DNA of 50,667 bases from Girardia tigrina (lineage: Eukaryota): positions 1-50,667 of the forward strand of contig MQRK01224578.1 of assembly GCA_001938485.1 (NCBI GenBank), read 5' to 3'. Positions 7,639-47,835 of this stretch are shown here, piece after piece (position 1 is the first letter of the stretch; every line of letters begins with the position of its first letter). The position numbers and the translations under genes are program-made. A model generated the notes under the pieces. The model was not told the origin of the DNA. It did not search any database and saw only the letters and a program-made list of their open reading frames with translations.

Positions 7639-9470
7639 TGTTAAGAAAACTCATACATTTGATAGATCATTTATTACATTGACAAGTTTGATAATCTCCA
7701 TGACAATCACTATTATCGCTCGCACTTAAATCCATCGATCAATGTTTAATACTTATCATTACAATCTGAACTAACTTGAAGAAAATAATTTTATTTAAAT
7801 TATTTAATTTTAATTTTATAGGGTAAAATAAAATTACTTTTTATAATCATTTTTAAACATTATTTGGATTTTAATTATTTAAAAATTTACAAAAATAAAA
7901 TCAATCACATTATTTAAAAGTTACAATAATAAAAATTAAAAATTTGAATATTAAATCTAAATTTAAATAAATTAGTTTCAGATTATAAGAATTAAAATAT
8001 TAATCATCCATCAGATTAAGAGAGGCACAATCCCAAATCAACACACAACATTCAAACATGCAAACGCTACACGAAAACATCAACACACCAAATATTCCTC
8101 ACATCCACCTCGATTCAAATGGCTTTAGTCATTTCACATTTCTGATCAAAATTCTACCATTTTCAAACTCCAATTCATAACTTCCTTCATGTCTTCTGCT
8201 TTTTACTGTGACTGGATCCAGATATCGATTTTCTTCCTTTGTAACATTTTCTTTTTTTATCAACATTTTATCCCCTGTATGAAATATTCGTTTTTTTTCA
8301 TCACATTTTCGCTTTTTTTCTTAACACAACTCTGTTTCTTGGTATCTTTCCACCAATGTCTTAGCTTCCCACCAAATATCATTTCTGCTGGGGAGATACC
8401 TGTGGTAGCTTGAATTGTGCTGTTCATCATAAATTCTACTTCTGGCAAAATTTCCTACCAATCTTTGTGGATTTGATCTTTTATCTTTATGTTCATAACA
8501 TCTCTAATTATTCTAAATTGTCTTTCAATGATGCCATTGGTATTGTGATGATAAGGACTGGAGTAAATTATTTCTACTTTAAATTTCTTCAGTGTGTCTT
8601 TGAAGAGTGTCGATTCGAATACCTTACCTCTATCCACATGGATTTCTTTTGGAGGTCCGAATTTCCAAATCTATTTTTCCAGTAGTACCTTCCGTGCAGT
8701 TTTCTCATCTTGATGAATTACAGCAGTCAGACTAATATACCTGCTAAATTGATCAATTATAGCTAATATATATTGATATCCATTTAAAGTCATTTTAAAT
8801 GGTCCGCAATAATCCATATACAGCTTTTGAAATGGCTCATCAGCGAATTTTTTAATATAACTTTCTTTCATTTTCGTTGTTAAAGTCTTTCTCTTTTGAC
8901 AGTTTATGCAACATTTTACAATTTCCTAAATTATCTCTCTCATATTAACTATATCAAAATCATCTTTCAAATAGTAATAAACATTTTTACTACGAGCATG
9001 GCACAGCACCTTGTGAGCTTCTTCCACGAATTCTGTCCTTGTGGTTCTCGGAATTCAATATTTGTTATCTATTGTTATCACAATATTGTCTTTAAGCATT
9101 TATTTCTTTGTTCTTTCCATTCTAATATCTTCTCTGATCTGATTTATTTCGTCATTATTTTTCTGCCATTTGAACTCTTTTGATTCTTCATCTAAAGTCA
9201 AGATTCGTGCTTTAATCTTTCCTTTCTTAGCTTCTTCGTGCATTGTTTGACACTGACTACATAATTCACAAAAAATTATCGATATTGCATCTGCATTTGA
9301 CTGTTTTCCTCCTTTCCGATATTCCATTCTCATATCCACTACTAAAAAAATTATTCACTGTTGAAATTGCGGTGTTATTAGATTTTTGTATTCAGCATAA
9401 AGGTAATAGCCTTATGATCAGTTCTTACTAAAAATCTTTTACCGTATAAGAAGTGTTTAAAATTTTGCGT
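7639..9470 (-). mobile_element. 5'-truncated Gypsy element: RNase H-integrase remnant, PPT and 3' LTR (7639-8103)
   Basis: MDYCGPF, IIDQFSRY, SSPYHHNTNGIIER, TTGISPAEMIFG; PPT GAGGTGGA precedes the LTR start TGTGAGGAA. Confidence 0.88.
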
Positions 9471-9529
9471 TATTTTACTTTATTTTGCTCATTTTGAATA
9501 CTAATAAATGAGTTTTAATTAAGGAGTCT

Positions 9530-9956
9530 TATTAAGAACACTAATTGGATGTTTAATACATTTATTTGTATCACAACTTGAATCGCCATTAAAACAATTC
9601 TCTATAAAACTTTCATAGCTAGTCATCGTTCTTAATTGATAATTTTAATTCTATTTCTAAATGAATTATTATTTAAAATAAATTTAAATTACAATTTATT
9701 TATAATTTGATTTCAAAATAATTTATAATATAAATTACAGAAATAATTTTAATTATTTTAAAAAATGTGCTAAATGCATTATTTATTGATATTTAAATTT
9801 AATTTTAAAGTTAGTTATTTAAATTTTCAAATTGAATAAATACTTCGACGTTTTAAAATATTTTAAGTATCAATCTATCATCTGGGTGGGAGAAACACAT
9901 CCTAAAACAACACATTAAACAACATACAATAAATACCATTCAAAATATTTCTCACA
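9530..9956 (-). mobile_element. Solo LTR, TGTGAG family (427 bp, TG..TA ends)
   Basis: Exact 5-bp TSD AGTCT on both sides; shares the TTTCTCCCACCCAGATG core with other copies. Confidence 0.9.
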
Positions 9957-11199
9957 AGTCTGATACTCATTAAATGATTCTAATTAATTAAGATAAAATC
10001 ATTCTGTAGAACAAAAAACATCATATTTAGAACACAAATATGATTTTCAACATTTTTACTATCACAAATCGATTTTTCTCTGGGATAAATCTCGTAGATG
10101 AAGGATATACAGAATCTTCGAACCCGATTGCGATATACTATGTGTCACTGCCTCTTAACGGTACCGCGGAGACGGACTCAGGAGTCATTCCAAGGGTGTT
10201 TCTCGTCTTTCGGTTAGGTAATACGGCAAATTTGGGGATATTTTAGTGTCATTTGTACAAAATGTGTTTACACAGGCAAAGTTCTACAGAATCACGGTAC
10301 GAGGGATAATGACAGGTCCTTTCTGATTGGGAAACCGAAGCGCGCTCGTGCACTGAAAGATCGTATTCTTGCATCTATAGCCGTGCGAGAAAGTCAATAG
10401 GCTCTGTATTGTCTATTTATGATTTCTACCCGATACAGAGTCTATGGCTCACTTCTCTGTACGCCAATACTGGTACTGTAGTCCCTACGATAAGCAGTTA
10501 TCCATCCACTCGGGGGAGGCTTATATCTTAAATTTTACTTTAAAATTATTTAAATGATTTTCATTTAAAACATTTAATCAAACCGTTTTAAAAATTTATT
10601 TTAAACATTTTATTGTAACTAAAAAGATAATTTCCTTTCAACCTTAGATTCAACCATACATTAGTTTTCTGTTTTTCAGAAAGGTTTTCATTTCGATTTC
10701 GATCAACCATTCTGTATATCCCTATTTAAAAATAAATAGGAAACATTTTAATTGGGTTAATTTATTGTTTGACTTACCACTTATTTTGACACTTAGTAAT
10801 TTATAATAAGATTATAAGTGCTTCTACTACAATTTTCATTTCAATTTTTTATTATTGGCTTTCAAAGTTAATTTTATTGTTATATTTCAATTTTAAATCC
10901 TCAATATCAGTTAGTTTAAAATCTTAAAATAAGGTTTTATATTATTAATTGAGATTATAGGTTTAATTGACGTTGAAACAGGAAATTAAGTAATACAACT
11001 CCGAATGATTTCTGACAGTAAGAAAATCATAATTTCTTGAAATTATAAAATGAATTGTCAATTATTTGAACAAATATATATTCCGTTTTCCCTTAAAAAT
11101 CGTTTTATGAAAATTATTTTCCTGGGAAAAAAGAAATGGCAATCATAACATAAAAATCATTAAATTTGTTCCCTAATTAGTTCTGCTAATTAGTTTTTC

Positions 11200-12440
11200 A
11201 TTAGCACCAACTTTGGTATCAATATTTATGAAGTCACTTGAGGATAAAATGAATGCATACCCTGGTGAAAAACTTGTGTTGTACAAGAGATATGTAGATG
11301 ATGTCTTTTAGGTTTTCTGAAATCAATCCCTCATAGAACCATTCCTAACATTCATGAATGGTCTTCATCCGAATATTAAATTTACCACAGAATTGGAAGT
11401 AGATAATAAAGTTCCCTTTCTCGACATTCTTGTCACTAGAATGAATGGAAGCTATAAAACTGAATTATTCAGAATGGCAACAGTTATAGGTCTTTACACA
11501 ACACCACAGAGTTTTTGTGAGGAAAAATACAGAGAGGGTATGATCAAAGGGCTTGTTCACAGAGTTTGGAATTTGTCGTCCAGTTTTGAAATTGCAAATC
11601 AGGGTTTAAATATTCTTAGAAGGCGCTTGAGGGACAATATGTATACAAACAAGCAAATCGAACACAACATTAGGGTAACATTAGACAAATTATGTACAGA
11701 TGCACGAGTTAAAAAACAATTAAAAAAAAAATACTGAGGAATACAAACAAATCATTAAAATTCCATATTCTGAAGGATTTAGAGCGTTTAAGAAGAGTAT
11801 TTGTAGATCAATAAGTAGTGTTAAAGTAGTCTCTGTCACATCCAAAGTTCAAAGTTTCCTCTCAAACAAATCGAAAACAGTTTGTGATTTGCAAGCTAAT
11901 CTGGTATATAAATTTAATTGTCACGGANNNNNNNNNNNNNNNNNNNNNNNNNNNNNNNNNNNNNNNNNNNNNNNNNNNNNNNNNNNNNNNAGTCGATCGA
12001 GTAAGGTTCTTGATCATTGGTTATGTTGTAAGGATAGAACCTCATCCATTTCAAAAGATGAGTTTTCTGTTTTACAAAATGGTTTTGATTCACATTACGA
12101 ACGACAGTTGTGTGAATCTCTACTAATAAGACACTACAACCCATCAATCAACATTCAGAATGAGCAAAGTAAGGTTATTTCAATACTTAAAATTTTTAAT
12201 TAAAATATTTTTTGCCATTATTACCCAATAATATTTTCATAAATAAAAATATAAAATCCTTAATATACCTTTTAAAGTAAATGTATCTATTAAAATTATG
12301 TTATTCAAACAATTCTATATTCATATTCTAAACATCCAAAAATTGTTGATGATGATGTATGTAAACATCGAAAAATGTCCAATAATTATATAAAAAAAGC
12401 TTTAATCAAATTATATTTTCGAAATACTAAACTTGCGTTG
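11200..12440 (+). mobile_element. Penelope-like retroelement 3' half: RT, GIY-YIG endonuclease and pLTR
   Basis: YKRYVDDVF; HPNIKFTTELEVDNKVPFLDILV (11354-11737); NLVYKFNC...ERQLCESLLIRHYNPSINIQ (11889-12203); disrupted, with a gap at 11928-11990. Confidence 0.9.
12342..12383 (+). ncRNA. Minimal type I hammerhead ribozyme motif (degenerate, C3>U)
   Basis: ATTG-TTGATGA-T-GATGT atgtaa ACATC-GAAA-aatg-TC-CAAT. Confidence 0.7.
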
Positions 12441-12526
12441 TATATTATATATATATATATTATTGAGTCTTGTGAACGCAAGTTTAGTATTTCGAAAATA
12501 TAATTTTTAATTTTTTTTATACAACT

Positions 12527-12568
12527 ATTGGACATGTTTTGGTGTTTATATACATCATCATCAGCAAT
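12527..12568 (-). ncRNA. Minimal type I hammerhead ribozyme motif (degenerate, G12>A)
   Basis: ATTG-CTGATGA-T-GATGT atataa ACACC-AAAA-CATG-TC-CAAT in the inverted pLTR copy (about 12470-12700). Confidence 0.7.
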
Positions 12569-12591
12569 TTTCTATTGAATTGTTTGAATAA

Positions 12592-12826
12592 TACAATTTT
12601 TCACAATTTTAATAAATATAATTTACTTTAAAAGGTAACGAAGAAATTAAACATTTTTATTTATCAAAGTATTATTGGGTAATATGGCAAAAGAAGAAAT
12701 TAAAAAGTATTTTTAATTAAAATACTTTTGCCATATTACCCAATAATACTTTGATAAATAAAAATGTTTAATTTCTTCGTTACCTTTTAAAGTAAATTAT
12801 ATTTATTAAAATTGTGAAAAATTGTA
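12592..12826. repeat. Perfect inverted repeat with 102-bp arms
   Basis: 12592-12693 is the reverse complement of 12725-12826; runs into an N-gap. Confidence 0.9.
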
Positions 12827-12919
12827 NNNNNNNNNNNNNNNNNNNNNNNNNNNNNNNNNNNNNNNNNNNNNNNNNNNNNNNNNNNNNNNNNNATATATAT
12901 ATATATATATATATATATA

Positions 12920-13529
12920 CAGTAACTTTTTGAGATAATGAATTTTTTTAATAATGAATTTTTATAAAAACGAGCATCCATTGACTATTTCATTAAGAAA
13001 TGCAAAAAATTGTTATAAATAATGAATTTTTAGATAATGAACGAGGAAATTTATTTAATCCTTTCGCTTTTTTTCAACAATAATTCTTATTTCAAAAAAA
13101 ATTCTAATTTCAAAAAAAAATTCTGCATCATTAAATAATAACATAAATTCATCTGAAATTTTTGACTACGATGACTTTCCAATATGTGCCGATTCTGATA
13201 TTGATAATACGACCTATCTCGAACAAATTGAATCTATAAATAAAATTGAAGAGGATGAAGAAAAACAGCAACAAGATGAGCAAGAAATCGAATATGCAGA
13301 TGCAGTGTGTTGTTTAAAAAAATTAGAAAGGTGTTTTCTGATGCATAACAACTCTGCTCTTAAAAACTTGGATGATCTAAGAAATCAGTTACTTGATAGC
13401 AAAAAAACAGAACTTTAAAAATAACAGATTTTTTTGAAAACATAAATAAACATTGGAATCTTCATTATTTTTTTTAATGAGCAGATGTTTTTTGGTCTCC
13501 GTGACGCTCATTATCTCAAAAAGTTACTG
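12920..13529 (+). mobile_element. Non-autonomous pogo/Tigger element (internally deleted)
   Basis: TIRs CAGTAACTTTTTGAGATAATGA, TA TSD; retains an acidic transposase C-terminus ending KITDFL. Confidence 0.88.
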
Positions 13530-13749
13530 TATATGGGATGACAACGGGTTAAGCTGACATAATTTTTTCAAATTGTCATTATACAGAATTTGAATGTAAA
13601 ATATTTAATTAAATGACATTGTCCAAATACTAATACCTAATTCTCATTGTAAATTTACGGCTTCTTTAAAAAGTACCTTTTATGACTTATTTTCACGCTT
13701 AACATTAAATTTCTCTATAAATAATTATTAATTAGATGAAAATTTCATG

Positions 13750-13843
13750 AAATCCTGACAGTTTGACAAATCCCGCCCGAACGCCCCAGACGAGCATTAT
13801 TACTCGGACATGTCCGGGAAAATCCGGACGTTAGGTCACCTTA
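13750..13843. mobile_element. hAT (Blackjack-like) terminal fragment
   Basis: GC-rich CCGGAC/CCGGGA subterminal motifs ending GGTCACCTTA, resembling a TAGGGTGACC-type TIR. Confidence 0.45.
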
Positions 13844-13844
13844 T

Positions 13845-14069
13845 ATAATCATTTAAAAATATTAATTTGATTTAATTATTTACAAATTTAAAAATATAAA
13901 ATTAATAAATTCATTTAAAATTTACAAGAATTAAAAATTCGAATATTAAATATAAATATGAATAAATTAATTTCAGATAATAAGAATGAAAATATTAATC
14001 ATCCATCTGAGTTGGAGAGATAAAATTCCAAATCAACACAAAACATCAACATTCCAAATATTCCTCACA
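13845..14069 (-). mobile_element. Partial LTR, TGTGAG family
   Basis: Similar to about 7845-8103; starts TGTGAGGAATATTTGG. Confidence 0.8.
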
Positions 14070-14864: not shown

Positions 14865-16283
14865 TATAATCTTTCCTTTCTTTGCTTCTTCATGTGTTGT
14901 TTAGCATTGACTACATAATTCGCAAGAGTTTCTCGACATAGCATCTTCATTTTAATGTCTTTCGCCTTTCCTGTATTCCATTCTCATATTAAGACCGCTG
15001 AGAAAATTTATCCATGTTTGAAAATGCGATGTGTTATTGGATTCTTTGCGGTCATCATAAAGGTAATAGATTTGTGATCTATTCACAATAAGAATCTTTT
15101 TTCAATATAAGAAATACTTAAAATGCTGAGTGAAATAATATATTGCAAGTAATTCTTTTCTGATAATACAATAACCAAGTTCATGTTTATTCATCTTATG
15201 AGCATTTTACAACTTTTGAATAGGTATTTCTCGGTTTTTATTCATTATTTCTTTGATTAGTGTACCTATTTTCGATATTTCTTTGTTGGCTGTGTTCTTT
15301 ATAATGTGATTTACGTTTGCCTACTGTTTTCCATTCATCATGTTTACCTACCGTAATGTATGCCGCAACTGTTTCTTCTTTTCCATTTTGCGTAGTTCAT
15401 ACATATTTGAAACTACATCTTTTATGTCTTTTGTTTCGGTAGCTCCTCTCAATTTCAATTCTCTCTTCACCTCATAATCGACAACCATATTCATGCAAAC
15501 AAGGTTGAGCAGCTTTTTCTTAGAAGTTTACTTTCTGTTATTATTGTTATTAACTCTTCGGCTTTTTTGAACGTTTCTTCCGGATTTGAAGATCCCCACC
15601 GGAGATTTAAAATATCCTTCATTGTGTCGAGCAAAGATTTTTCTTTCACAAATGCCATTTTAAGCTTTTCTTGAAACATATTTCCATCTGCTTCTGAAAA
15701 TTTTGTGATTGCTGATGGAGTCATGTTGATCGTCACCATCACTAATCTTCTATTTTCTGTTATACCCATAATATCCGCATAACGTTCGAAATTTTTTATG
15801 AAGTCATCTAATTTCGACTCGGATTTTTCGTGTCCCATAATGTTCGTTGTCACATGAGCTGTGGTCGCCATATTAACAACATCAATATGAGTTTTGTAAC
15901 ATTTATTATTATCACAAGCGCATTCACTATTTGACATCTCTTTTGATCAATTTATTTCTGAGTTCAAACTAATTATTTTCAATAAATGAAAATCTGTTAA
16001 TAAAAATTATTAATTATAAAGAATTTAATTGGTTGAAATTAAATCTAAACATTTTTCAAAAAAGAACATATTAAATTAATATATTAAAATTTTAAATTAC
16101 ATTAAAAAATAAATAATACATTCAAAATTATTTTAAATCTTTTTACTTTACAATTAAATTAAATTATTTTTAATTAGTAGGAATCAAAGAAAATACCAAT
16201 CATCCATCTGTGCAGGAGAGGCACAATCCGAATCAACATACAAAATGCACAATATCAACACACAATTCAAAACATTCCTCACA
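14865..16283 (-). mobile_element. Internally deleted Gypsy element: 5' LTR (15871-16283), PBS, gag N-terminus, RNase H fragment
   Basis: PBS TGGCGACCAC (15870-15861) resembles a tRNA-Arg 3' end; ORF 15937-15491 starts in the LTR; RNase H GYCIIRKELLAI at about 15140-15180. Confidence 0.85.
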
Positions 16284-25416: not shown

Positions 25417-28060
25417 CAGTGGCGGTATGCTGACGAAAAATTTGGGGGCCCGAAAACCTATATAGATCAAAATTTATTGAATATTGATAGTAACCAAATT
25501 TTTGCTACAATTGTTCCGTGTTTTTGTCAATATTAGCCATAGATAAATATCATAACACACATGCTTTAAACAAACGAAATACATTTATTTCAAATATTAA
25601 AAACATTTCTCCTTAACTAAATAATAAAAGTAAATTTCAACGTCTATCTTCAAAGTTATTTCACAAATGTGTTGCTGCAGGTCTTCTTGGCACGATTTGA
25701 TTCCACCGCAATAACCATTAAATCTGAAAGTTGGTCTTTTGTCATAACTGTACAAAAGTAATTCTTCACTAATTCGAGTGCAGAGAAAGACCGCTCACAG
25801 GACGCTGAGGTGACCGGCAATGTAAGCACCAGACAATAAAGTTGAGCCAGATGGGGATACGTTGTGGTAAAGCCACGATTAACCATTGCGGAGGAATACA
25901 GGAAGGATGTTACCCTTCTCATATATCTCCCGTGAGAACAACCGATACTCAGTCCGAGCATTGGAAGCATTCACGTCCTCTCGGTAAAAGACAACAAAGT
26001 GTCTAGTTGGTTTAGATGAGCTATGTTTGGAGAACCTAAGCATTCAAGGCATTACAACAAGGGAAGAACATTTGTATCAAAGTGGATTTCCAGTACTGAC
26101 AACAACAGGTCAATAGTTCCATAGAAAAAGTAACATCTGTATCTCTCTCGACCAGTGAGTAACACCTGATGTGAGTAACAGATAGATACATAGAATGTAT
26201 AATATAATATTGATATTTATTCTATTATCTATGAATTACATTGATCATCAATTCGCTTGGATATTTTTCGTTGCCATGATTCCTCATATTGAACTTCGAT
26301 GGTATCAGCAATTTGTTCGGCTTTTGTGCACATAAGATCAAAAGCCTTTTCAGAACGTTGCTCTTTGATTGCACTAATCAGTGAGTTTAATTAAGATGAC
26401 ACTGCGGATATATTGGTGTCTTTTCTTTGTAGATCCTTAGAAAGAATATTAAAGAGCTCTAAGAATTCACTCATGACTGTGAGACAGAGGCAAAATTCAA
26501 AATCAATAGCCTTTAAGAGGGATGATGCATCACCGGCTATATTGCGATCAAACGAAGCATCCAGAGTGACGTTTTTTATTGAAGCAACTTTTACGGGAAG
26601 TGTTTTCAATTGAACACACCACAGTTGTCTGAAAAGCTGCTTCATTGCGTTGTACTTAAAAATCGAAGAGTATGACAACCGTATGTCGGAGTGACTGTGT
26701 CCTGTGAACTTATCAAGTTGTCAAAAATACCATGATGATTTGTGGAACATTCTGTAAAACGATAAAGTTTTTGCACACTCCAAAGAAATTCCTCATCGTA
26801 ACATTTTCATAGCACACGTCAACGAAAATCAAATTTAAACGATGTGAAAAACAATGAACAAAGTATGCTGAAGAAGAAATGTTGCGAACTCTTGCTTGTA
26901 CATCAGTATACTGGCCTCTCATGGTGGAACAGCCATTGTCCGCTAATACTTGTCATAGATAATGTTCGCCGAACTTAAGAATGTGTGATACACATCGAGA
27001 GAGAGAGAGAGACATACTAATCTTAGCGGCCAATGCGTATCAAGAATTGGTGACCATCTAAATCAAAATTGTTCAATAAACGGATCTTGATGGACTTATC
27101 CTTAAATCGTCGACAATCGTTAATTTCAATGGATTCAAAACTAAAGCAGCGTTTGAGCGTGAAATGACCGAAGAAGTTTGATATTCTGCTCAGGTTTTCC
27201 AATTTCAATGCAAATATCGAACTTAAGCATAAATATTTCACTGCGCATACGAATGACTTTGAATTTTAAATGTTTTTTTGTGTTTTTATTTTGTTCGTTG
27301 TATTGTGTTATTTGGGTGGTTGTGCTGGCTGCAACTGTCCAAGAGCACCGAGAGAGCCAACAACAGTGAACCAAATGGCCGAGGAGCAGAAAATCTATCG
27401 AGAGAGATACATTTAAGTTCCTCCCGACCCGAAGTCCGCCATCCAGCGCCGGAGTATTGCAATCATGCTAGCGCTGCTCATGCTCTGTTATCAGATAATT
27501 CGTGGCTTTTGAGAACAGCGCTCAGCTCATCTAATATATTAAGTCATCCAATATAAAAATGTTGATCTTTCTTACTAAGATCAGGCAAAGTATCCTAACA
27601 TATGGCAAAATACTTTGCAAGCCTCCCTTTAGAGGCTACATCAGCCTTCAGCAACTGACCAAGAGTTTCAATCATCTCATTGTGCGATTTGGAGGATGTA
27701 TAGCTTGGCTAACCAAATGGATTTGAAGCTGAGTGTTTCAAATGACTTTCCAGTCTTTCATTCCATCTCCAATTAACTCCGTAATTTCAAGAAAAACTCC
27801 CCTGTGACTTGTACTTTCTTTTTCATAGTCCCCCCTAGAAGGAAACTTCAATATTGTAATGGTATTAGTTATATCAAACAAAAGTGGTAGAATATCGTGT
27901 CGTTGCCGGCATTCTTTATTTCCCAGTTGTAACAATCGCTTCCCCTCGTCAGCTAATTGGGCATCATCTGATGAAATGTTCTTGAAATCGGTCCAACGCT
28001 GCATGCTAAAAAAATGTTGATCGCTATTTGCATGCTTGCCGAATCGTCGACCTGACCCAA
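25417..28060 (-). mobile_element. Decayed hAT (Tip100/ZMYM1-like) transposon, 5' truncated, interrupted at about 27015-27555
   Basis: RGDYEKESTSHRGVFLE, FVHCFSHRLNL, TLPVTSASCERSFSAL (hAT dimerisation domain); TIR CAGTGGCGG at about 25417. Confidence 0.88.
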
Positions 28061-28663
28061 GGCCTGACTCAACTTTGTCTCTGATCCATCAAAAATCTTC
28101 AAACCTCTAATGTTCGGAATCACGTGGTGGTGTGTCGCCATATTAAGAACACCAACATGGGTTTTCGAACTTTTATTTTCAATACAATTAGAATTGTCTT
28201 TTGGACAACTCTCAGCAAAGCTTTCGTAATTCGACATCGTTCTAAATTGATAAATTTTAGTTAATGTTTTTTAATAAATAATTATTCGAACAAATTTTTC
28301 GTTATTTTCAGATTTTATTTTTAAAGTTCAAATTTTGTAATTTTAGTAATAATTTTATCTACATATTAATTTTATTTAAAAAATGATTTTTTTTAAAGAA
28401 AGAACATTTATTTAATTTAAAACTTAGTTAAAAGCTATTTACTTTATTTAAATTTTTAATATGAAAATTTGAAATGATTTGATATTTTCAAAGTTTTTTT
28501 TTAAATATCTTATGCTGTACTCTAAAATGCAAATTATACTCGAATAAAAATTCATCATGAACATCCAAAATATAAATTTTCCATCTGGGTGGGAGAAACA
28601 CATTTCCAAATACTAAACTCAACATACAAATTTCAACATACCAAATTTAAAATATTCCTCAAA
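28060..28663 (-). mobile_element. 5' LTR (28141-28663), PBS and start of gag, TGTGAG family
   Basis: PBS TGGCGACAC at 28140-28132; ORF from 28237 reads across the LTR end. Confidence 0.85.
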
Positions 28664-30802: not shown

Positions 30803-32082
30803 TTGGGTTGGCCAAAGTCATTGCGTTTTTTACTAAAATATTTATTATCAATAAATGACATGCATGCACAAATATTTTTACACGATATACTGTCCATTAT
30901 TTTCAATCACTTTCTTCCACCTTTCCGGTAGCTTCATTATTCCTGATTCATAAAAACCTTTGCCTTTGTCAGCAAAAAAGCCGTCTAGGAACGATTTGAT
31001 GCCATCATCACTCGCGAATGTTTTTCTGTTTAAGGAATTCTGCAGTAATCTAAATAAGGGAAAATCCGATGAGGCCAAGTCTGGATAATACGGTGGGTGC
31101 GGCAAAACCTCCCAACCCACTGATAAGAGTTTCTGGCGAGTGGTCAAACTTATATGCGGTCTTGCGTTATCATGCTGAATTACAACTCCTTTTCGATTTG
31201 CCAATTCAGGACGTTCCTGTTGAATTGAATGAGCCAATTTCTCCAGCTGACCACAATATCTGTCTGAATTGATGGTTTCATTCCTCGGAAGGAGTTCAAA
31301 AAACACAATTCCTTTAAAATCCCACCAGACAGAAAACATAACCTTCTTTTGGTGAATTTCTGCTTTTGGTATCGTTTTGGCAGGCTCACCAAGTTTTGTC
31401 CATGATCGACGGTTTTCCACATTGTTGTAAACAATTCATTTTTCGTCACCCGTAATCAAGCGCTTCAAAAATGGATCACTTTGTTCTCGCTTCAAAAGAG
31501 AATCGCAAATGTCTATATGTTTCACCAAATGAATTTCTTTCAGTTCATGTGGTAACCACATATCGAGTTTACTGACGAATCCAACTTTCTTGAAATGACT
31601 TCCAACACTTGATTTTGATATTTCCAGAGTCTCTGCAACTTCTCTTGTCGTCATATGTGGATTAAATTTGATTAGTGCTGTTATTTTGTCGCCATCAACT
31701 TCAAGTGGTCGACCGGAGCGTGGTGCATCTTTCACATGAAATTTTTCAGAACGAAATTTAGAAAACCAGTATTGACACTGTCGAAGTTTTAAGGAGTCAC
31801 TACCATATACAAACATATCTTCTTATGAGCTTGCACAGCGGTTTTCCCTTTGCGAAAATAATACAACAAAACATGACGAATATGCTCATTTTGATTTTCC
31901 ATTTCGAATTGACGGTAAAGTAATAAAGTAAAACAAAATCAATTAATATTTTGTATAAACATAGTCTGAAAATTAAGGTTTCAGAATATATAATTGAATT
32001 TAAATTTTATCACATCGTTTTATATTTTCAAGCTTTTTATTAGGACGTACTCAAAAACGCAATGACTTTTTGGCCAACCCAA
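30803..32082 (-). mobile_element. Full-length mariner (DD34D), 1280 bp; transposase 31902-30878 with two frameshifts
   Basis: TIRs TTGGGTTGGCCAAA..GTCATTGCGTTTTT, TA TSD; MENQNEHIRH, WLPHEL, ITGDEK, HDNARPH, YYPDLASSD. Confidence 0.96.
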
Positions 32083-32127: not shown

Positions 32128-34066
32128 CTTTAAAACCTCTCTATAAAGTTCCCTCTTTATAAGATGTAATTCTCTATGAGGAACAATATTTTTAAACACC
32201 GTTAAAATAATAAATTTTAAGCCAAAATTCATGTAAAATAAATATATAAATGTAAAAATACAAAGCAATGCAATTATTAAAGCAATGCAATTAGAAAATA
32301 AAATTACATCTTTAGAATTTTTTTTAATTTTTAAATTTTTGATAATATATTAACAATCCCTTTCTATATAATTTTTAAAATTTCAATTGATTCTTTATAA
32401 GAAACTTTAACTTTGTTAAAAATTACACGTCATATAATATATGTAAAAAATATATACCTCTCTATAATGAAAATGCAAAAAAAGAAGCTCAATTACCATT
32501 GGAAATAAACTTGAAATTGTGAACTTGTACAATAAAGGGAAAGACAGGTCGATTATTTGTCAAAAATTTAGTTTAACTAAAGCAAGTTTGTCAAGAGTAA
32601 TAAATTTTACAAAAGAAAAAGCAGCAAAGTTAACAAACACAAATCCTAAGTTCTTCAAAAGCCGAACATCAGAATTTGGATCTAAACTCGATAAATTTCT
32701 CATGGATTTTATACATAAATGTAATGAAATGGCATTCCCGGTAACTGGAAAGCTGATTAAAGCAACAGCGTTGAAATATTTTAGATCAAGAGACATCTTT
32801 TAGTTCTAAGCACATCTAAAGCCTTAAATTGATGACTGCAAAAGTTTCAAGTGAGGTACAATATAACCTCAAAAAAGCTAAAAGGTAAGAGTGGAAGAAC
32901 AGATACCTTTAATGTTGATGAAAGTGGTCTTTTTTGGAAACTTTTTCCAGATAGAACAATGTGCATTAATAACTTTAAAGTAGAAGGCGCAAAAAATTCT
33001 AAAGAACGCCATAGTATTTTATTTGGAGTTAATCAGGTTAAAGAAAAAATGTCACCTTTAATTATCGAAAAAAGTAAAATTCCTTGAGACTTTAAAAATC
33101 GCAATGTCGAGACACTTGGAATACTTTATGATTATAACTCGTCAGCATGGATGACAAAAATCATATTTAAGTGTTATTTTGATATGATAAATCAAAAACT
33201 TATTCTGGAAAAAAAACAGAAAAATTCTTGTAATCCTTAATAATTGCAGTTCTTATATGATTGAGGAACTTTCAAATATCAAATTTGTCTTTCTTTCACC
33301 GAATACAACATCGTTGATTCAACCTTTAGATCGAGGAATTATTAATAACTTTAATCAAAGATACAGGGAGAGTTTTTTAAATACAATATTTAGTTTGTCA
33401 TGTGAAGAAAAGAAAGCAAAACTAGAAATTTTTAATGTGTTCAATGCTCTTGAACATATCGTATTGGCCTGGAATCAGGTATCATATACAACTAACGTTA
33501 ATTGTTTCCAAAAGCTTTTTGGTTATGGAATATTAGAAAATGAATCAACAAGAACGAATTCATTTGAAAACGAAACAGAAAATCTTGTAAGAATTATTTT
33601 AGTAATTTCTTCCACTGCACTAGAGGCAACTCATAAACTATTAAGTGGGTTTATCGAGTGTGATTCGAAAGATAATTTAATGATACTTTATACAAAAGAA
33701 CTTATTGATGATCTATTAACCACAGAAAATGAATGTATAAATAAAAATATTTGCATGACATCGATCAGCTTAAAGTGGAACTTGTTGCTTTAAAAAACGA
33801 GATCAATCTTGATATAGCTACTGAATTTTTCAAAGTAGAAAATATGTTAAACAATGAAATTAATAAACGAATTTTTTAAATAATTTGTTTTTAATTAGTC
33901 TATTTTGTATTTATTTGTTGAATTGAAAATTAAAACAGATTCAATGCATTATTTTTTCTATTATTCATTAATTCAATATAAATTCATTCCCTCTCTATAA
34001 GCAACTGTACTTATAGAGAGGTAGTTTTCTCGGTCCAAAATAATTCCTTATAGAGAGGTTTTACTG
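32128..34066 (+). mobile_element. Full-length decayed pogo/Tigger element
   Basis: TIR ..TAAAACCTCTCTATAA / TTATAGAGAGGTTTTACTG with TA; CENP-B-type HTH (32519-32803); FNVDESGLFWK; FLSPNTTSLIQPLDRGII. Confidence 0.92.
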
Positions 34067-36640: not shown

Positions 36641-38932
36641 TGTGGTGTTCAAAAAAATCAATAAAAATAAAAATTCAACAAATTAAATGAATAAACAAAA
36701 ATTAATGTTTTTGTTTTACTAAACAAAGTGGCAAACAAATTCAAAAAATTAAGAAATATGAATCCACCACGAACAAAAGCAAAACCACAGCCAGTAACTT
36801 GAGCAAACACAACCTACAGGTAAAACTGCAGAAATGCCACTTTTTTCCGACAAGTTGAATTCCTGGGTCACGTATTATCCGACAAAGGCGTACTACCACT
36901 GGAGAGCCGTGTCAAAGCTATCAGAGATTTTCCCCGACCAGTAACAGTCACGGCACTGGAAGCTTCTTTGGGATGATAAATTTCTGTAGACGGTTCATAC
37001 CGCACATTTCCGACATACTGGCAACCCTTACGGTCCTTTCTTCCGGACCAAAACGCTCACAAATCACCTGGACAACCGAGTCAGAACAGGCGTTTTGTCG
37101 AGCCAAAGACGCCTTACAAAAAATCAAATCCCGTCATTTCCCGGACAACAACTTACCACTCACATTGACAACGGACGCCTCCAACACGGCAATAGGCGCA
37201 GTCTTGATGCAGGTCCGCAATACGCATTCCGAACCCATAGAATTCTTTTCTCACAAACTGTCACCGGCTCAGACAAGATATTCCGCCTTCGATCGGGAAC
37301 TGTTAGGCCTTTACATGTCGGTCAAATATTTCGAACATTTCTTGATCGTCAAACCGGCAGTCGTTTACACGGACCACAAACCGCTCCTGCATTATCTGAC
37401 CATGAAATGTCCTTCCCCGCGGCAACAACATCACATGAGTTATCTGTCACAATTTAACATCGAATTACGCTATATCAGAGGAGCTGAAAACGTTGTCGCA
37501 GACTGTTTGTCCCGCGCAGACATAGCCAGTCTTGATTTCGAACCCCTCCTTACCACTGAGACCCTACCACAACACACACCCACCCAAAAAGATCTCAGTT
37601 TTTTCTCCAATCCACCGGTCTCCAAAGGGAACATATTCTTTGACACTTCGCTCACTGGATCCATCCGACCGATACTTGGACAAGAGCTACGCGCACAAGC
37701 TTTCCAAGCCGTTCATAACGTCGCTCACTCCGGCAGGAAAGCAACTTACGAGTTGTTACGAACTAAAGTCATTTGGCCACAGATGCGGAAAGACATCACA
37801 CTATGGTGTCGGCCTTGCTTCGACTGTCAACGGGGCAAGGTCACCCGGCACACGAAACCACCGACCATAGCCTTTCCTACTGGCAGCAGGTTCGACACAA
37901 TTCATATGGACCTGGTCGGCCCACTTCCTCTGTCAAAAGGATTTTCTTACTTGTTCACAATAATTGACAAAAACACACGCTGGCCTGAAGCGTTCCCTCT
38001 CAAAACAACCGCCACTGAGACCATAGCAGACATATTGATGAACCACTGGATATCCAGATTTGGCATTCCCAAGCGGATCATTACCGACCAGGGTCGGCAA
38101 TTGAATCTGCACTTCTTACGGATTTAACCAAAAGACTGGGTACCTAAAAGGTGAGGACAACAGCTTACCACCCCCAAACCAACGGTCTCGTGAAACGCTT
38201 CCACAGGACAATGAAAAACTCGTTCAGAGCGCTAGACCAAACCACAGCCTGGGCAGACCAATTACCTTTCGTCCTTCTTGCTTGGTGTAACATACCCGAC
38301 GGCAAACACGGGACTTCGCCAGCACAACTGCTTTTCGGGTCAAACACGTCCTTCGTAAACGAACTGTTTTTTAACGAAGCCCCCCGGAACAACAGCCAAC
38401 TGGTGGCAGCTCGGACGCTCTTCATGGAAACCAACAGAACGCCACAACATCACGACACACATAAGATTTTCGTTCCCAAAGACCTAGCAACTGCGAAATT
38501 CGTCTGCCTGCAGAAAGAAACCACATCTTTAGAATGTCGTTACACTGGGCCACACAGACTCATCTCCATCGACTCAAGCAACAACACAGCAAGAAATACC
38601 CTCCACGGTGCAGAACGCACCGTCAACGTATGTAAACTTAAACCCTGCATACACTTCTAGGATTATACACCCGGTAACAACGATACAGCACCAAACAACA
38701 ACAGTCTGCCAGATACCGGTGATCACACATGCACAGCCCCACAACATCCACAGACGTTACACCAAGCCAACGGAATCAATCCATACCAACACAGTCAACG
38801 AGGACCACACTACTCCGATCTAGACGTCGTCCAGCACGCTACAGAGAACAAACCCAAACACTTACATAGCACACATAACACTGAAAAATCATCATCCGTA
38901 CTATACCACATTTATTGTATTTTTTTTGTTTT

Positions 38933-40325: not shown

Positions 40326-40435
40326 ATGTGTAGATACTCTGTGCAGATATTCGATGCATAACATGGTTTTTAATTTCGTGTCGTTTATAATTTTTCTATT
40401 AATAAAATTTTAAATATCAGTTTAAAATTTCTTAC

Positions 40436-41650: not shown

Positions 41651-42334
41651 AAACAGAGTCAAAATATTGCATAAGGCAAAGAAAAGGTGTATGCGACATT
41701 TAACGCACAATTAAGTATCAATTTAGACGTGAACGCAGCAAGTCTCTTCATAAGTTGCGTTTGATTACGGATGTAGCTAGTTGAAAGATAATTGATAGGT
41801 TGTAGATACAGAGCAATTATTTATTAATTGAATGTACGTGTAGATACCTATTTACCAATTTGTGAAATTACCGTATTTATTGTGATAAAAAAAAGATTTA
41901 TTAACTAAATACAAATTTGAAAAATCCACTTAATTGTTATTGTCGCGCATTTAAAATAAATAACGCATAATTAATAATGTATGATTTTTTATTAAAAATT
42001 CTAAGTTTTACAATCAGAAATTTTAATGGTTTACTTTCAATATCTGTAATTTGGTTGACAAACGTATTTTGAAGTTTAGGGTAAAACTAATAATAAATAT
42101 ATTTATAAAAATAATTTTTCGAATAAGAACTCAAATATTTCTGGCGTTAAAGCACGGCTTCAAGTCTATCTCAGATTCAAATAAAGTTTAGACCATTGGT
42201 AAAGTAGAAGGAAGACGGAATTTTAAGGAATTAGAAAATGCTATTATCTGAAAGGAATTCGAAAACTTTTTTTGTGCTCAAATGAATAACAAATTAATCT
42301 ATCTTTATAGAAATTTTCTATTTTTTTTAACCCC

Positions 42335-42440
42335 TGTGAAGAATTTTTAAATTTGAATGTTGAAATTCGTGTGTTGTATTTTGCAATTTGAATTTGGTAT
42401 TTGGAAATAGGTTTCTCCTACTTAGATGAGAAATTGCTAT
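42335..42440 (+). mobile_element. Partial LTR, TGTGAG family (+ orientation)
   Basis: TGTGAAGAAT...TTTCTCCTACTTAGATG. Confidence 0.7.
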
Positions 42441-42849
42441 TTTCGATTGAGGTGCAAGCCACTGGATCCAGCTGTGGTGACCGGAATCCCTTTAACGTAG
42501 GGGAAGTTTGTAGCCGATAAATAAAAAAATATCAAATGGCCGACTCGTCGTTGTGTCGGTGCTGTGACCGCTTCATGGAAGTTCCCCGTCGAGCAGTGAA
42601 ACCTGGAGCGGCGGGGTTTACTATCGCTCCGTTCACTCGAAGTCGGTCAGTCCGACTGACGAGATCACGTCGACCAGCGATGCGCCTTCGGCTCGCGCAT
42701 AGCAGCACTCTATTTTGTCCAACCGCTTTGTTTTGCCGCAGAGTGGTATGGTTACGCGGGCGCCGCATGAATTTGTGGTATAAGGTTCACAATACAGAAG
42801 AAGAACCGAACGTGAACAGACAACTTTTATTTTTTAACGACAATTGATA

Positions 42850-43190
42850 TCTATATTTTTCAATTTAAAATTCACAGAATTTTGTAAGCATTTTGACAGT
42901 TATTGGGAGAGTGTGTCGTGTGAAGCATTGTTAATTAGGTCACATTGCCCTAAAATCAATGTTCAATCGACAGTCTCAACCAGCTTATTGAGAATTTTTG
43001 ATTAGCATGATTTCATGCAATCGATTACATAATCATCATTTTTGTATTTATATACAGGTGAATTGATTATTAATTAGTGACCTGAAGATGACGGTAGATA
43101 CGTCGAAATATATTGTCTTAAAATATATTTTTAAATGGATGACTTTGGTTATTAAAATAATGTTTTTAATTAAAATTTTGGTTGGAATAA
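42850..43190 (+). mobile_element. Penelope-like 3' end (GIY-YIG C-terminus and pLTR)
   Basis: FDSYWESVSCEALLIRSHCPKINVQ followed by a hammerhead. Confidence 0.8.
43079..43117 (+). ncRNA. Minimal type I hammerhead ribozyme (intact core)
   Basis: GAC-CTGAAGA-T-GACG gtagata CGTC-GAAA-TATA-TT-GTC: stem I GAC/GTC, stem II 4 bp, palindromic loop III. Confidence 0.85.
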
Positions 43191-43193
43191 ATT

Positions 43194-43615
43194 TATTAAG
43201 ACCATAAGATTTTCAACATTTTTATTATTAATACAATTATATTATTATTATTGTAGTTTATCGTCAGGATAATTATTGCCAAAACTTTCGTAGGTTTGCA
43301 TCATTCAATTGATTAATATTTCGAATTAAAAAAATATATCGCATAACTTATTCGGTTGAAATTAAAATGAATTTTATTTTTAAAAATATTAAATTGATTT
43401 AATTATTTTTAAATTAAAAAAATTTTCATACCATTTAAAATTTTATAGCGATTTTTAAATTTTAAAAAATTTTAAATAAATTTAAATATTAAACTTAAAA
43501 TTAAAAAAATATTAGTCTCAGATTGTAATAAATTAAAATAATAATCAGCCATCTGAGTAGGAAACACACAATTCTAAATCAACACAACATTCAAACACAT
43601 CAAACATTCCTCACA
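43194..43615 (-). mobile_element. Solo LTR, TGTGAG family (422 bp)
   Basis: TGTGAGGAA...CTTAATA; TSD AAATT/ATATT (4 of 5 match). Confidence 0.8.
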
Positions 43616-44220
43616 ATATTAAATTTCTTAAAATGTTTAAAATAATCATGAAATCTTAAAACTAATTAGTATAATAAAATGAAAATCTTTGTTCGAATAA
43701 TTATTTTAAAACGATGCGAACTAAAATCTTAATAATTTAGATTGATGTCAAGTGATGAAAGTGATTTTAAGAGTTATAAAAGGGACTATATGAAACTGTG
43801 ATAATAAATATTTAGAAAACATTGTTAGTGTTCTTCACAACCAATGTGGGTAAATAATTACTTCTGCAAATGACTTATTTGAAGTTTTTTTATACTTCCA
43901 ACGATACTTACAATAAGGTAAAGGTTGACAAAATTCGTCGACTACTTCATATAAGATACTGAGAATAAAATACTGATAAATTATAATAGAATATAAAATA
44001 TCAATTTTTTAAGGGAGAAAAAAATTAAAAACAACAATTAAAAATCATATTTCATCATTACATACGGTGTTTCCCAGTCAGAAGCAATTGTTGGAGTGGT
44101 TATTCAATATTTATTTAACTATATATTTCCAATTTTTGAGTCTTGTGTTTGCTAAATTATTTATTTCGGTAAAATTATGTATATATATTTATAAGTGGAA
44201 GCTAAAAAGAAATTAAATAC

Positions 44221-44415
44221 CGGTTTAATAATCCATTTATGTTTATTTCCACCGGATTCCCAGCATTGTTTGAATAATTCCAGATCAGTTGGTAAACAGA
44301 AGGTTTGAGGTATGAAGTCAAACTCATTATTTCCTACTTCTTGTTGCATACGATAAATATTTCTCCAAAGTCTGTCTTTGCGCCCCAATTGAAAAGAACC
44401 GGGAAAGTGATTTAC
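44221..44415 (-). CDS. TTLL4: TTLL4-like exon d
   Basis: VNHFPGSFQLGRKDRLWRN...PQTFCLP...KWIIKP; 195 nt, phase 0-0, AG/GT ends. Confidence 0.95.
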
Positions 44416-44605
44416 CTGCAATATATAAATAATAAATACATAATAAATTTCTATCAAAGAAGACACGAATAATATCGAAAATTCTACCAAACATCAACAT
44501 TTGTAAAATGAATTATATAATTATTTTAAAATACCAATGATTAGATGAAGAGACAAGTAATTCCAAAAAATGTGATTAATAAATCCTAATTGATAAAAAA
44601 CTCCA

Positions 44606-46192
44606 TAACATCAATATGAGTTTTACAACATTTATTAATATCACAAGCGTATTCACTATTTGACATTTTTCTTGATCGATATATTTCTGAGTTCATACTA
44701 ATTATTTTCAATAAATGAAAATCTCTTAATAAAAATTATTAATTATAAAGAATCTAATTGGTAAAAATTAAATCTAAACATTTTTACAAAAGAACATATC
44801 AAATTAATATATTAAAATTTTAAATTACATTAAAAAATAAATAATACATTCAAAAATTATTTTAAATCTTTTTACTTTAAACTTAAATTAAATTATTTTT
44901 AATTAGTAGGAATTAAAGAAAATACCAATCATCCATCTGTGTAGGAGAGGCACAATCCGAATCAACATAAAACATGCACAATATCAACAAACAATTCAAA
45001 ACATTCCTCACATCCCCCTCGGTTTAAATAGCTTTAGCCATTCAACATTTCTAATCAAAGTTTTACCATCTTCGAGCTGTAACTCGTAACTCCTTTCGTG
45101 ATTTAGTTTCAACACAATTGCCGGACCCATGTAACGGTCATCTTATTTTGATATATTTTCTTTTTTTATCAACACTCTGTTTCGAATTTCAAAAACTCTT
45201 CTTGTCTCCACATTTTGTTCGACATTAACTTGGTTTCCGTTAGTTTCTTTATTGTTCTTCCACCAATGTCTTAATCGTCTCCCAAATATTATTTCAGTCG
45301 GTGAAACACCTGTCGTAGCTTGAACTGTACTATTCAACATATTCCATTTCCGACAAAACATCTGTCCAATCTCTGTGGTTGCCGTCCTTCATTCTAATAT
45401 TTATAGCATCTCTGATTGTTCAAAATTGTCTTTTCACTATCCCATTTGTATTATGATGATATGGACTTGAATAGATTATCTCGACTTTGAACCCTTAGAC
45501 TGTATCTTTGAACAAAGCCGATTCAAATGTTTTTCCTCTATCAACATGGATTTCTTTTGGAGGTCCAAATTTCCATATTCATCTGTCCAATATAACTCTA
45601 CGAACTATTTTTTCATCTTGACTAGCAACTGCATTCAGGCTAATATATCTACTGAATTAGTATACTATTGCAAGTACGTATTGATATCCGTTTATGTTTC
45701 TTTTGAATGGTCCACAGAAATACATGTATATTTTCTGGAAAGGTTCATCTGCCGACAACTTTATATGTTTTTTCTTTCGTTTTCACTGTTAATGTCTTTC
45801 TTTTTTGACAATTTAAATAACTTTGGACTATTTCTTTAATGAAATTTGTCATATTTTCCATGTCAAAATCTTCTCGAAGATAGTTATAGACTTTATTTAC
45901 TACCAGCATGGCATAACAGCTTCAATAACATCTCTTCAATAAAATCTGTTCGTTTTTCTTTTGGGATCCAGTATTTATTGTCCTGAGTTGCCACAATGTC
46001 ATTTTTTAGTGTCCATTTCCTCGTTTTCTCTTTTCAGGTATCTTCAACAATTTGTTTTATTTCTTCATTATTCTTTTGCCATTTGAAGCCCTCTGACTCT
46101 TCGTTCAATGCAAGAATTCTCGACTTGATCTTTCCTTTCTTGGCTTCTTCATGCAACGTCTGACATTCGCTACACAATTCGCAAGAATTTCT
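44606..46192 (-). mobile_element. 5'-truncated Gypsy element: integrase remnant, PPT and 3' LTR (about 44606-45012)
   Basis: Paralogous to 8104-9300; PPT GAGGGGGA; LTR closely similar to 15871-16283. Confidence 0.88.
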
Positions 46193-46838
46193 GTATACTT
46201 CTAAAATCAAGGAATATTGTATAACAACTAAAATGTCACGTTGATAATTCTCTAGAATTTTAGAAATTTTCAATTTATTGTTTTCGAGAAATTACACATT
46301 TATTATTTCAATTAAATTCTTTGAAAATTAGACGGCAATGAATTTCTTTTTAACCTAACACTAATAATTATATTTAAGACTTTCTGACAACCGATCTAGC
46401 TTTGAATAAGTAAAGTGTAATCTAGCTTTGGTTAACAAAGCTTGCTTCGTTTCGTGCTGTCAAAATTAAATTTCGGTCGTTAGAAAAAGAATTTCATCAA
46501 AACATATGTTACATTATTAATACGTTTATTAATGTAATTATTAATATGTTAATTTTTGTATTAGAAATGATAATTACTTAAATGTTTACCGATAAATAAA
46601 AGTTTAAATTTCTAATCGTTCTTTTGAAAAACTATCAATTTAACTTCAGTACGACAACATCAAAACAAATTTATCCTCTGTTGAAATCATAACTCCAAAT
46701 ATTTATTTCTATAACAATTTACTATTTTTCTGCATTCTCTACAACTTTGTTGGGAGTTTTAAATGACGTACCGATTATGTAATGATTGCATAATCATTAT
46801 CTCTATTATTGAAGTTAATTTCGTATGAAAAATCATTT

Positions 46839-46877
46839 GTTCTGACGATGACGGTTAAACTGTCGAAATTAATAAAT
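46839..46877 (+). ncRNA. Minimal type I hammerhead ribozyme (intact core), probably from an orphan PLE pLTR
   Basis: GTT-CTGACGA-T-GACGGT taa ACTGTC-GAAA-TTAA-TA-AAT; preceded by a palindromic hairpin like that of the 43079 copy. Confidence 0.8.
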
Positions 46878-47414
46878 TTTGATTGGCTTTGAAATTTTTT
46901 GTTCGATAATCTGTCAATTGTACTCAAATTTATTCACAATTAACTATATTTCAAACAAAGTTACGAGGAACAATATTTAATTATTTTACACAAAACCCAG
47001 ATATCAAAATTTTATTACATCAATACATAAATTTTAGTTTTAATTATAAATATTTATACATTAATTATAAAACTTTTAGTGGCTGTTTTATTTTTTAAAA
47101 AAAGTCAAATGTTTTAAAAAATGAATTATTAGCAAATAATTTTAAACTTAAAAATTTTCAAATAGTTTTTGTTAGAAGAAAAAAGATCTACACTAAAATA
47201 TATTTAATAAAAATAAATCACAAACACTCATACATCAGTTATATACAGAATAAAAGGAGAGTCAAAGGTTAACTCTGCTCTCGACCCCTTAATAGTTATA
47301 TAATACAAATCTAGAATTATTCAAAATTTGTTGATTGTGTAATATTTTATTTAATTAATTTAAATTTAATTTTATAATATCTCACAACTTTAATGTTTAA
47401 AAATTATTTGTTTT

Positions 47415-47835
47415 TATTAAGAACATTAATTTGGTTTTCTTTACATTTATTTATATCACAATTTGAATTTCCACTAGAACAATTCTCCGCAAAACTTGCG
47501 TAGCTCGTCATCGTTTTCGATTAATAATCTTTAATAATATTCTTTAACGTCTTATTATTCAAACAAATTTAAATTACAATTTAATTATTCCAAAAATAAT
47601 TTATACTTTAAATTTGAAATAATTTTTATTTATTTTAAGAAAATATTATCAAAATATTATTTATGAAATATTAGTTTAATTTTAAAGTGATTATTTAAAT
47701 TTTAATATTTGATTAAACAACCTGACGTTTTAAAATATTTAAAATATCAATCTTCCATCTGGGTGGGAGAAACACAATCCTAAAACAACATACCAAACAA
47801 CACACAATAAACACCATTCAAAAATATTCCTCACA
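47415..47835 (-). mobile_element. Solo LTR, TGTGAG family (421 bp, TG..TA ends)
   Basis: Exact TSD GTTTT; close paralogue of 9530-9956. Confidence 0.9.

Follow-up and report, generated by a model that had tools for sequence, protein, structure and literature searches.

A Ty3/Gypsy retrotransposon family of Girardia tigrina in which the gag frame probably opens at an ATG inside the LTR

In the Ty1 retrotransposon of Saccharomyces cerevisiae, the GAG AUG lies inside the 334-bp long terminal repeat (LTR). The available part of one description gives Ty1 a 5′ UTR of 53 nt, a GAG start upstream of its primer binding site (PBS) and a PBS that lies within GAG codons (PMC5454406), and in the available part of another the N-terminal region of Ty1 Gag is disordered (PMC10372613). 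A study of animal Metaviridae LTRs by Benachenhou et al. (2013) describes, in its accessible portion, LTRs that begin in TG, an AATAAA with a GT-rich stretch after it as the best conserved motif, and an AATAAA near the LTR end in Sushi (PMC3601003). For Tf1 and HIV-1, the available text of PMC11042837 reports integrase-independent, PBS-guided insertion, in which LTR ends are followed by primer-copied sequence. A literature search conducted outside most subscription papers and Repbase/GyDB entries yielded no account of gag beginning within the LTR of a Gypsy element; the start codon, the PBS and primer binding go unmentioned in the available part of PMC4202319, and that of PMC9503155 contributes nothing further.

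The window, the whole stretch of DNA analysed here, is 50,667 nt long (contig MQRK01224578.1), and its minus-strand LTRs belong to a Ty3/Gypsy (Metaviridae-type) LTR retrotransposon family. Copies of the family have the domain order gag (two CCHC, zf-CCHC present)-PR-RT-RH-IN. The pol order is that of Ty3/Gypsy elements, the Pfam sets of homologues agree with it, and the Ty1/copia order, with IN before RT, is not seen in the family. The 5-bp target site duplications (TSDs), the polypurine tract and the tRNA-Arg PBS likewise fit a Ty3/Gypsy element, and copies with two LTRs were found (L156, L163, L164). A Pfam scan of the window copies matched no Gag domain. In an AlphaFold model of Gag, residues 3-36 have a pLDDT below 50 and a helical capsid-like fold lies beyond them, which together with the zf-CCHC suits a Ty3/Gypsy Gag; the top Foldseek matches are the dArc1, Copia and Ty3 capsids, with a best E of 4e-3 and none at E<=0.001. 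No reference from a named lineage of Gypsy (Mag, Osvaldo, Gmr1, CsRN1 etc.) is among the closest database matches. Seemingly open frames 858-1,153 aa long proved to be assembly gaps rather than real ORFs.

Like the animal Metaviridae LTRs, those of the family begin with TG in all subfamilies and carry AATAAA and then a GT-rich stretch, with the AATAAA near the LTR end as in Sushi; 5-bp TSDs and a polypurine tract are seen in the window as well. They differ in that TA closes the LTR in most subfamilies (A, B, C, D, G, H) where CA does so in others (subfamily E and the relatives L261, L262 and L279), in that the AATAAA region is coding, and in a contiguous PBS of only 7-11 nt, matching the 3′ end of tRNA-Arg.

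Copies in the window are described here by their leader, the stretch from the LTR ATG to the LTR end (copy coordinates such as 7735 and 9626 give the A of each ATG). Two 5′ LTRs on the minus strand retain their junction with gag. The subfamily A LTR (15871..16283) has a leader of 22 codons from ATG 15937 and an AATAAA starting at 15907; its PBS (15861..15870) is a 10-nt match to the tRNA-Arg 3′ end that forms Gag codons with the LTR's last A, and leader and gag are open for 148 codons (15491..15937) in a broken, internally deleted copy. The subfamily D LTR (28141..28663) has a 32-codon leader from ATG 28237, an AATAAA starting at 28177, a tRNA-Arg match of 7 nt only (28134..28140) and 94 open codons of leader and gag start (27953..28237), also in a broken copy. 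Two minus-strand solo LTRs, of subfamily B (9530..9956; ATG 9626, AATAAA start 9566) and subfamily C (47415..47835; ATG 47511, AATAAA start 47451), have open 32-codon leaders and perfect 5-bp TSDs. The minus-strand 3′ LTRs, of subfamily E (7639..8103, ending ...TAACA; AATAAA 7675-7670) and subfamily A (44607..45012), are each preceded by a polypurine tract and an integrase remnant. A further minus-strand solo LTR lies at 43194..43615 (TSD 4/5). LTR ends were set by the TSDs (5/5 at 9530-9956 and 47415-47835, 4/5 at 43194-43615), and the end at 15871 is backed by contigs of three public runs that exit the LTR there (34, 22 and 15 contigs); these runs are assembled contigs whose RNA nature is mostly guessed, they located neither a transcript start nor an end or poly(A) site, and their summed depth was left unused.

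The first-pass annotation of these copies proved correct in its geometry. The distance from ATG to LTR end is 3n+1 in five copies (97 nt at 7735, 9626, 28237 and 47511, and 67 nt at 15937), the leader at 7735 has one stop, that at 43301 is frameshifted (108 nt), that at 44666 lacks the last 7 nt of the LTR, and the terminal A adjoins TGGCGAC at the 15937 and 28237 copies, with the frame open into gag. All the copies it named are on the minus strand. It overlooked two: an LTR 5′ piece on the minus strand (13838..14069, left end approximate), broken off ahead of the leader, and a plus-strand LTR split by insertions (42335..43839), with a 5′ part from 42335 and a 3′ part at ~43678-43839 whose leader from ATG 43745 is frameshifted. 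TGTGAG matches at minus-strand 19253 and 37255 and plus-strand 11516 are not LTRs.

The same layout recurs throughout the genome. Searching for TTAAYATGGCGAC gave 1,667 LTR/PBS junctions, against 12 for the reversed control, and an ATG stands 67-97 nt ahead of the LTR end, in the gag frame, in at least ten subfamilies (leaders of 22-32 codons). Among the first 30 junctions by contig order, unselected, an ATG-started stop-free run of at least 20 codons reached the junction in 21 in the gag frame, compared with 0 and 1 in the other two. The modal leader is 22 codons in subfamily A (45/60 copies), 32 in D (20/28), E (18/26) and C (7/9), 26 in G (5/6) and 31 in H (3/3); subfamilies I, J and K are one copy each, and the families share ancestry. 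When neutral evolution was simulated (HKY) along the leader tree, with invariant columns held fixed, the ten leaders all stayed open in 0-1 of 2,000 runs, and a stop was expected in 6-8 families. Indels between families are all multiples of three (-30, -6, +3, -18 and -18, the last two in less certain alignment), while 13 of the 16 indels that arose after insertion break this rule and the mutational spectrum is mostly 1-nt. Leader third positions are 58-71% T, so that stops are avoided by the composition itself.

Constraint on the peptide is a different matter. Leader omega is about 0.45-0.85 between subfamilies; in five shared families it is 0.4-0.6, against 0.15-0.2 for Gag, and in the proximal half it is 0.55-1.0, not distinguishable from 1. 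The departure from 1 is weak and model-dependent (2dlnL 0.9-12.3), and thus constraint at the nucleotide level could account for some of the frame signal. In the leader, third positions are less variable (0.40) than first (0.47) and second (0.45) positions, the opposite of Gag, and synonymous change at shared 2-fold codons is 0.13 in the leader versus 0.42 in Gag. The invariant residues N-K, C and N are also invariant as DNA (AATAAA, TGT, TTAAYA). Of 120 copies whose leader is intact, 114 have an in-frame AATAAA at 37 nt (40 in H) from the end of the LTR, and the seemingly conserved Asn-Lys is this motif, likely a poly(A) signal. Composition is more distinctive: hydrophobic residues number 2-6 where base composition predicts 8-14, and Cys exceeds its expectation in 8/10 subfamilies, an enrichment that a reading of the leader as a pure spacer leaves unexplained. 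The Cys count varies from 1 to 5 across subfamilies, and is zero in L261, L262, L279 and L339-L341.

A leader stands at the N-terminus of 7/7 database Gag homologues. The metagenome relatives L261, L262 and L279 (64-66% RT identity) form one clade with support of 1.00 in an RT tree built with FastTree, from which L260 and L264 were omitted for stops within the matched range. These three have the junction frame and upstream ATGs of the family, and their leaders are unrelated in sequence; leader length across the radiation is 10 to 32 codons. A conserved peptide despite nucleotide divergence, as first proposed, is therefore not borne out by the omega values, the invariant DNA or the Cys-free relatives. 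The proposed selected N-terminal Gag extension, beginning within the LTR, is borne out by its frame, its avoidance of stops and its polar, Cys-enriched composition. Judged from these sequence comparisons, the gag frame and the polar composition of the leader are under selection and its sequence hardly is. The test suggested earlier, dN/dS and indel phase in young copies, did turn up indels out of phase, but it was mis-aimed: inserted copies decay neutrally, so selection has to be measured between subfamilies, and within-family dN/dS was dropped because of post-insertion decay.

We consider it probable that in this Ty3/Gypsy clade the gag frame opens at the distal-LTR ATG and translation likely begins there, the LTR's final 70-100 nt encoding a polar N-terminal Gag arm, predicted to be disordered, while also containing the integrase end, the short tRNA-Arg primer site and what is likely the poly(A) signal. 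Since the frame is selected and the short peptide is free to change, this is likely a compact layout in the style of Ty1 and not a new micro-gene. Transcription would start upstream of the LTR ATG (Inr-like words were noted by eye ~35-40 nt ahead of it in several subfamilies), scanning ribosomes would take that ATG as the first, the AATAAA of the 5′ LTR would be passed over, and the Gag arm, preceding the capsid, would serve in assembly or as a spacer, tolerating changes of sequence. As in Ty1, the gag frame opens upstream of the LTR end and runs through a coding PBS, and the N-terminal region is disordered, here by prediction. Ty1 belongs to Ty1/copia, whereas the window family has the Gypsy domain order, an animal host and a tRNA-Arg primer, and reads the junction as Met-Ala-Thr, the AATAAA as Asn-Lys and a leader that varies in length.

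The junction itself invites other readings. Its Met-Ala-Thr consists of the LTR's last A, the TGG matching the tRNA-Arg CCA and the following PBS codons; with a flush LTR/PBS junction and the leader frame, the ATG arises automatically and does not argue for a second start. It would be a by-product of the LTR end and the CCA complement. Leaky scanning could nevertheless use both ATGs, giving two products in a ratio that matters for particle assembly: a long Gag whose Cys/Asn-rich arm is functional (its role concerning metal, lipid or assembly) and a short one from the junction Met. We regard this as unlikely. Each of the nine subfamilies that have a junction shows A at -3 and G at +4 around the junction ATG, and the upstream ATG context is weaker in E and K, but the integrase end, together with the complement of CCA, sets the junction context, which would be conserved even without use. 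Cys exceeds composition and one TGT codon is essentially invariant across ten subfamilies, yet that codon shows no synonymous change at all and the Cys number ranges down to none; in favour of this reading, the available part of PMC10372613 adds that Ty1 particle assembly requires the disordered N-terminal region, which is exchangeable. Some copies end in 12-39 nt of tRNA-Arg complement, which insertion of the Tf1/HIV-1 type explains; because the PBS is coding here, unlike in those systems, Gag codons are sometimes overwritten by the tRNA-copied sequence, as in L241 and L194. That a second functional start yields long (Cys/Asn-armed) and short Gag while reverse transcription of tRNA-Arg continually rewrites the first Gag codons toward Met-Ala-Thr-Thr-Pro, the primer tRNA acting as a protein-sequence template that subfamilies escape through a PBS reduced to 7-11 nt, is quite unlikely.

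It is very improbable that Gag starts only at the junction ATG, with the upstream frame an untranslated side effect of a U-rich, triplet-periodic 3′-end-processing sequence. The quiet third positions and the non-significant proximal omega agree with it, but all ten subfamilies, and distant relatives of unrelated sequence as well, retain an in-frame ATG, fixed indels are all 3n against a mostly 1-nt spectrum, and the neutral simulation fails to keep the leaders open. Least credible, and extremely improbable, is selection of solo LTRs as mobile promoter-plus-microORF cassettes that give host peptides or N-termini, as the first-pass annotation had it. A first look gives 2,900-4,196 candidate LTR copies per query, and in many of them the ATG is intact and the frame open. 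The leader, however, contains no stop codon, which means that a solo LTR is not a self-contained microORF, and the flank adds a median of 8.5 random codons before a stop (n=60 solo copies); inserted copies decay near-neutrally (pN/pS 0.97, LTR-only set B, with the frameshifting indels above), and neither an own stop nor the protein-level conservation of an independent microORF or accessory gene is seen. Cargo capture behind the LTR ATG was rejected: 16/168 junctions lack gag and none of them has a long ORF. Solo-LTR leaders would be by-products of LTR duplication, and individual solo copies may be co-opted.

The favoured reading, a Gag that starts at the distal-LTR ATG, would make the Ty1 arrangement of a Gag start in the LTR and a coding primer site a stable design throughout a clade of animal Gypsy elements. 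It bears on the annotation of Gag starts and on how PBS evolution is read, as a coding PBS would be pulled two ways, by the tRNA template and by the protein. Many solo LTRs in the genome would offer a ready ATG with a frame open into the flank, a candidate source of new N-termini.

All seven LTR copies recorded in the first-pass annotation lie on the minus strand, each named by the A of its leader ATG, the leader being the codons from this LTR-internal ATG to the LTR end in frame with gag. The distances from ATG to LTR end were borne out in the five intact copies (97 nt at 7735, 9626, 28237 and 47511; 67 nt at 15937), as were the defects: one stop at 7735, a distance of 108 nt at 43301 and the absence of the last 7 nt at 44666. 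The LTR end was set independently by 5-bp target-site duplications in two solo copies and by contigs from three public runs that exit the LTR at 15871. An additional LTR piece (about 13838-14069, minus strand) and an additional split LTR (42335-43839, plus strand) had gone unnoticed. The AT-rich window, from a host genome of 1.43 Gb (G000), also holds RT and RNase H-integrase remnants of other Gypsy-type elements outside the leader family (4911-5912, minus; 36859-38660, plus) and, by Pfam, hAT, mariner and DDE_1 transposase remnants and an exon-like piece (25656-25970, minus; 30878-31822, minus; 33191-33793, plus; 44161-44493, minus); the exon-like piece, of the tubulin-tyrosine-ligase family by Pfam, adjoins the 44666 LTR. 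A candidate enhancer, made up of the word TCTCC-n5-AGATGG and runs of TGTTG, sits some 60-100 nt into the LTR and is kept across seven subfamilies, unlike the rest of U3 (window 15871-16283 and other LTRs).

Between their two LTRs, host-genome copies encode, in Ty3/Gypsy order, a gag that carries two CCHC knuckles, then protease, RT, RNase H and integrase; the database proteins nearest to them carry no lineage name. The junction word TTAAYATGGCGAC, spanning LTR end and PBS, occurs 1,667 times in the host genome vs 12 for the reversed control. Several non-retrotransposon ORFs lie within or beside a family A copy (L159:3318-5925). The PBS would pair with the tRNA-Arg 3' terminus (18 matches in the genome; ARAGORN called tRNA-Arg in two of the five loci scanned), and the match extends over 7 nt in subfamilies D, E and H, 9 nt in C and 10-11 nt in A, G, I, J and K. 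The 11th PBS base in A and G varies, so that a Thr codon reads ACA or ACG without a change of amino acid; ACG is the form that agrees with tRNA-Arg. The tRNA-Arg genes lack CCA. At 7 of 168 junctions, partly hand-picked, 12-39 nt of tRNA-Arg complement are present; the LTR ends and such a stretch, with CCA, follows at L239, L240, L241, L194, L204 and L225, and at L241 and L194 gag resumes after the tRNA copy, out of register. PBS tails of cDNA are described for Tf1 and HIV-1 (PMC11042837). At L255 (350-425) the LTR is followed by the complement of the whole tRNA-Arg including CCA, either a read-through copy or a PBS-guided insertion into a tRNA gene; its anticodon is GCG, as expected of an inosine-read copy, and a GCG copy also occurs in the tRNA array L259. 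Because the LTRs end in A and every PBS opens with TGG, an ATG, here a putative second start, arises wherever the two abut directly; the gag frame is one of the three phases it could occupy.

The gag-frame opening inside the LTR is real and selected. Of the 30 junctions that come first in contig order, 21 are reached in the gag frame by a run of 20 or more codons that begins with ATG and contains no stop; the other two frames give 0 and 1. Clustering of the 168 junctions gave subfamilies with modal leaders of 22 codons in A (45/60), 32 in D (20/28), E (18/26) and C (7/9), 26 in G (5/6) and 31 in H (3/3); three single-copy leaders have 32, 32 and 26 codons, and subfamily B was drawn from LTR-only matches. 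A leader with shuffled bases stays open 2-10% of the time, and when sequences were evolved neutrally along the leader tree, the invariant columns being kept fixed, all ten leaders stayed open in 0, 0, 0 and 1 of 2,000 runs. The proposed indel frame bias was found between subfamilies, where every change in leader length is a multiple of three (-30, -6, +3, -18 and -18, with a less certain alignment for the last two) and spacing 5' of the ATG varies freely. Random indel phase had been named as evidence against selection; this does not hold here, since 13 of 16 indels within individual copies are not multiples of three, yet all subfamily changes are.

Constraint on the peptide sequence itself is loose. 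When each of five families was represented by one real copy, the leader had an omega of 0.4-0.6 (2dlnL against 1: 1.1-6.4), vs 0.15-0.2 (2dlnL 69-74) in the 59 Gag codons that follow it. Across ten related families, fitted from intact-leader copies only and with three represented by one copy each, omega was 0.45-0.85 for the leader, 0.15-0.55 for its distal 16 codons and 0.55-1.0, never significant, for its proximal 16. Uncorrected between-family pN/pS was 0.94 for the leader vs 0.37 for Gag, and in the leader the third codon position is the least variable of the three, the reverse of Gag. Composition is under constraint: leaders hold 2-6 hydrophobic residues where 8-14 would be expected, and 8 of 10 families have more Cys than expected. 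Where positions do not vary at all, it is the DNA that is fixed (TGT, AATAAA, TTAAYA). In 114 of the 120 copies with an intact leader, an in-frame AATAAA sits 37 nt (40 in H) before the LTR end, followed by GT-rich sequence; it is probably the poly(A) signal, read as Asn-Lys. No motif pair is better conserved in animal Metaviridae LTRs than these two (PMC3601003). AlphaFold, from a 10-sequence alignment, placed residues 3-36 at pLDDT <50 ahead of a helical domain, whose best Foldseek matches were the capsids of dArc1, Copia and Ty3, all above E=0.001.

Solo LTRs had been proposed to act as mobile microORF cassettes. This reading is best regarded as a by-product because the leader has no stop of its own (in 60 LTRs without a following PBS the flank adds a median of 8.5 codons), LTR-only set B has a pN/pS of 0.97 and no cargo ORF was found behind 16 non-gag junctions; individual solo copies may have been co-opted.

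The probable LTR-internal gag start is a variant of the layout known from Ty1, which has a 53-nt UTR and a PBS within GAG (PMC5454406). The leader family's PBS likewise lies inside gag codons, but unlike Ty1, a copia element, the family has the Ty3/Gypsy order. The disordered, exchangeable N-terminal region of Ty1 Gag (residues 66-136; PMC10372613) is a loose analogy for the leader arm. No description of a Gypsy gag start within an LTR turned up among the papers listed by literature searches, a weak negative.

A leader precedes N-M-A-T in all seven Gag homologues found. The survey of metagenome loci covered the 44 of 79 in which 1.7 kb or more lies upstream of RT. In a separate Gypsy clade (41-42% RT identity; L318:28-3414, L332:3-5060, L333:1005-4364, L323), gag-pol frames stay open for 60-175 codons ahead of a TGGCGCCCAAC-type primer site, that of tRNA-Lys, and cross it in a different frame. 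At L315 an ORF begins inside a two-copy LTR. A distant family in the host genome has a 13-codon Cys-free leader in 3/3 copies, ahead of a putative gag. The junction frame and upstream ATGs are common to L260 (96% RT identity) and to L261, L262 and L279 (64-66%), the last three forming one clade with family A (support 1.00); at the sister locus L310 gag starts past a PBS-like word. A 3' repeat confirms LTR identity in L261 and L262, and the LTR of L279 is putative. Their leaders (13 codons in L262, 10 in L279, up to 30 from several ATGs in L261) are Cys-free and unrelated to that of the host family while the frame is the same, so what is conserved is the layout rather than the peptide.
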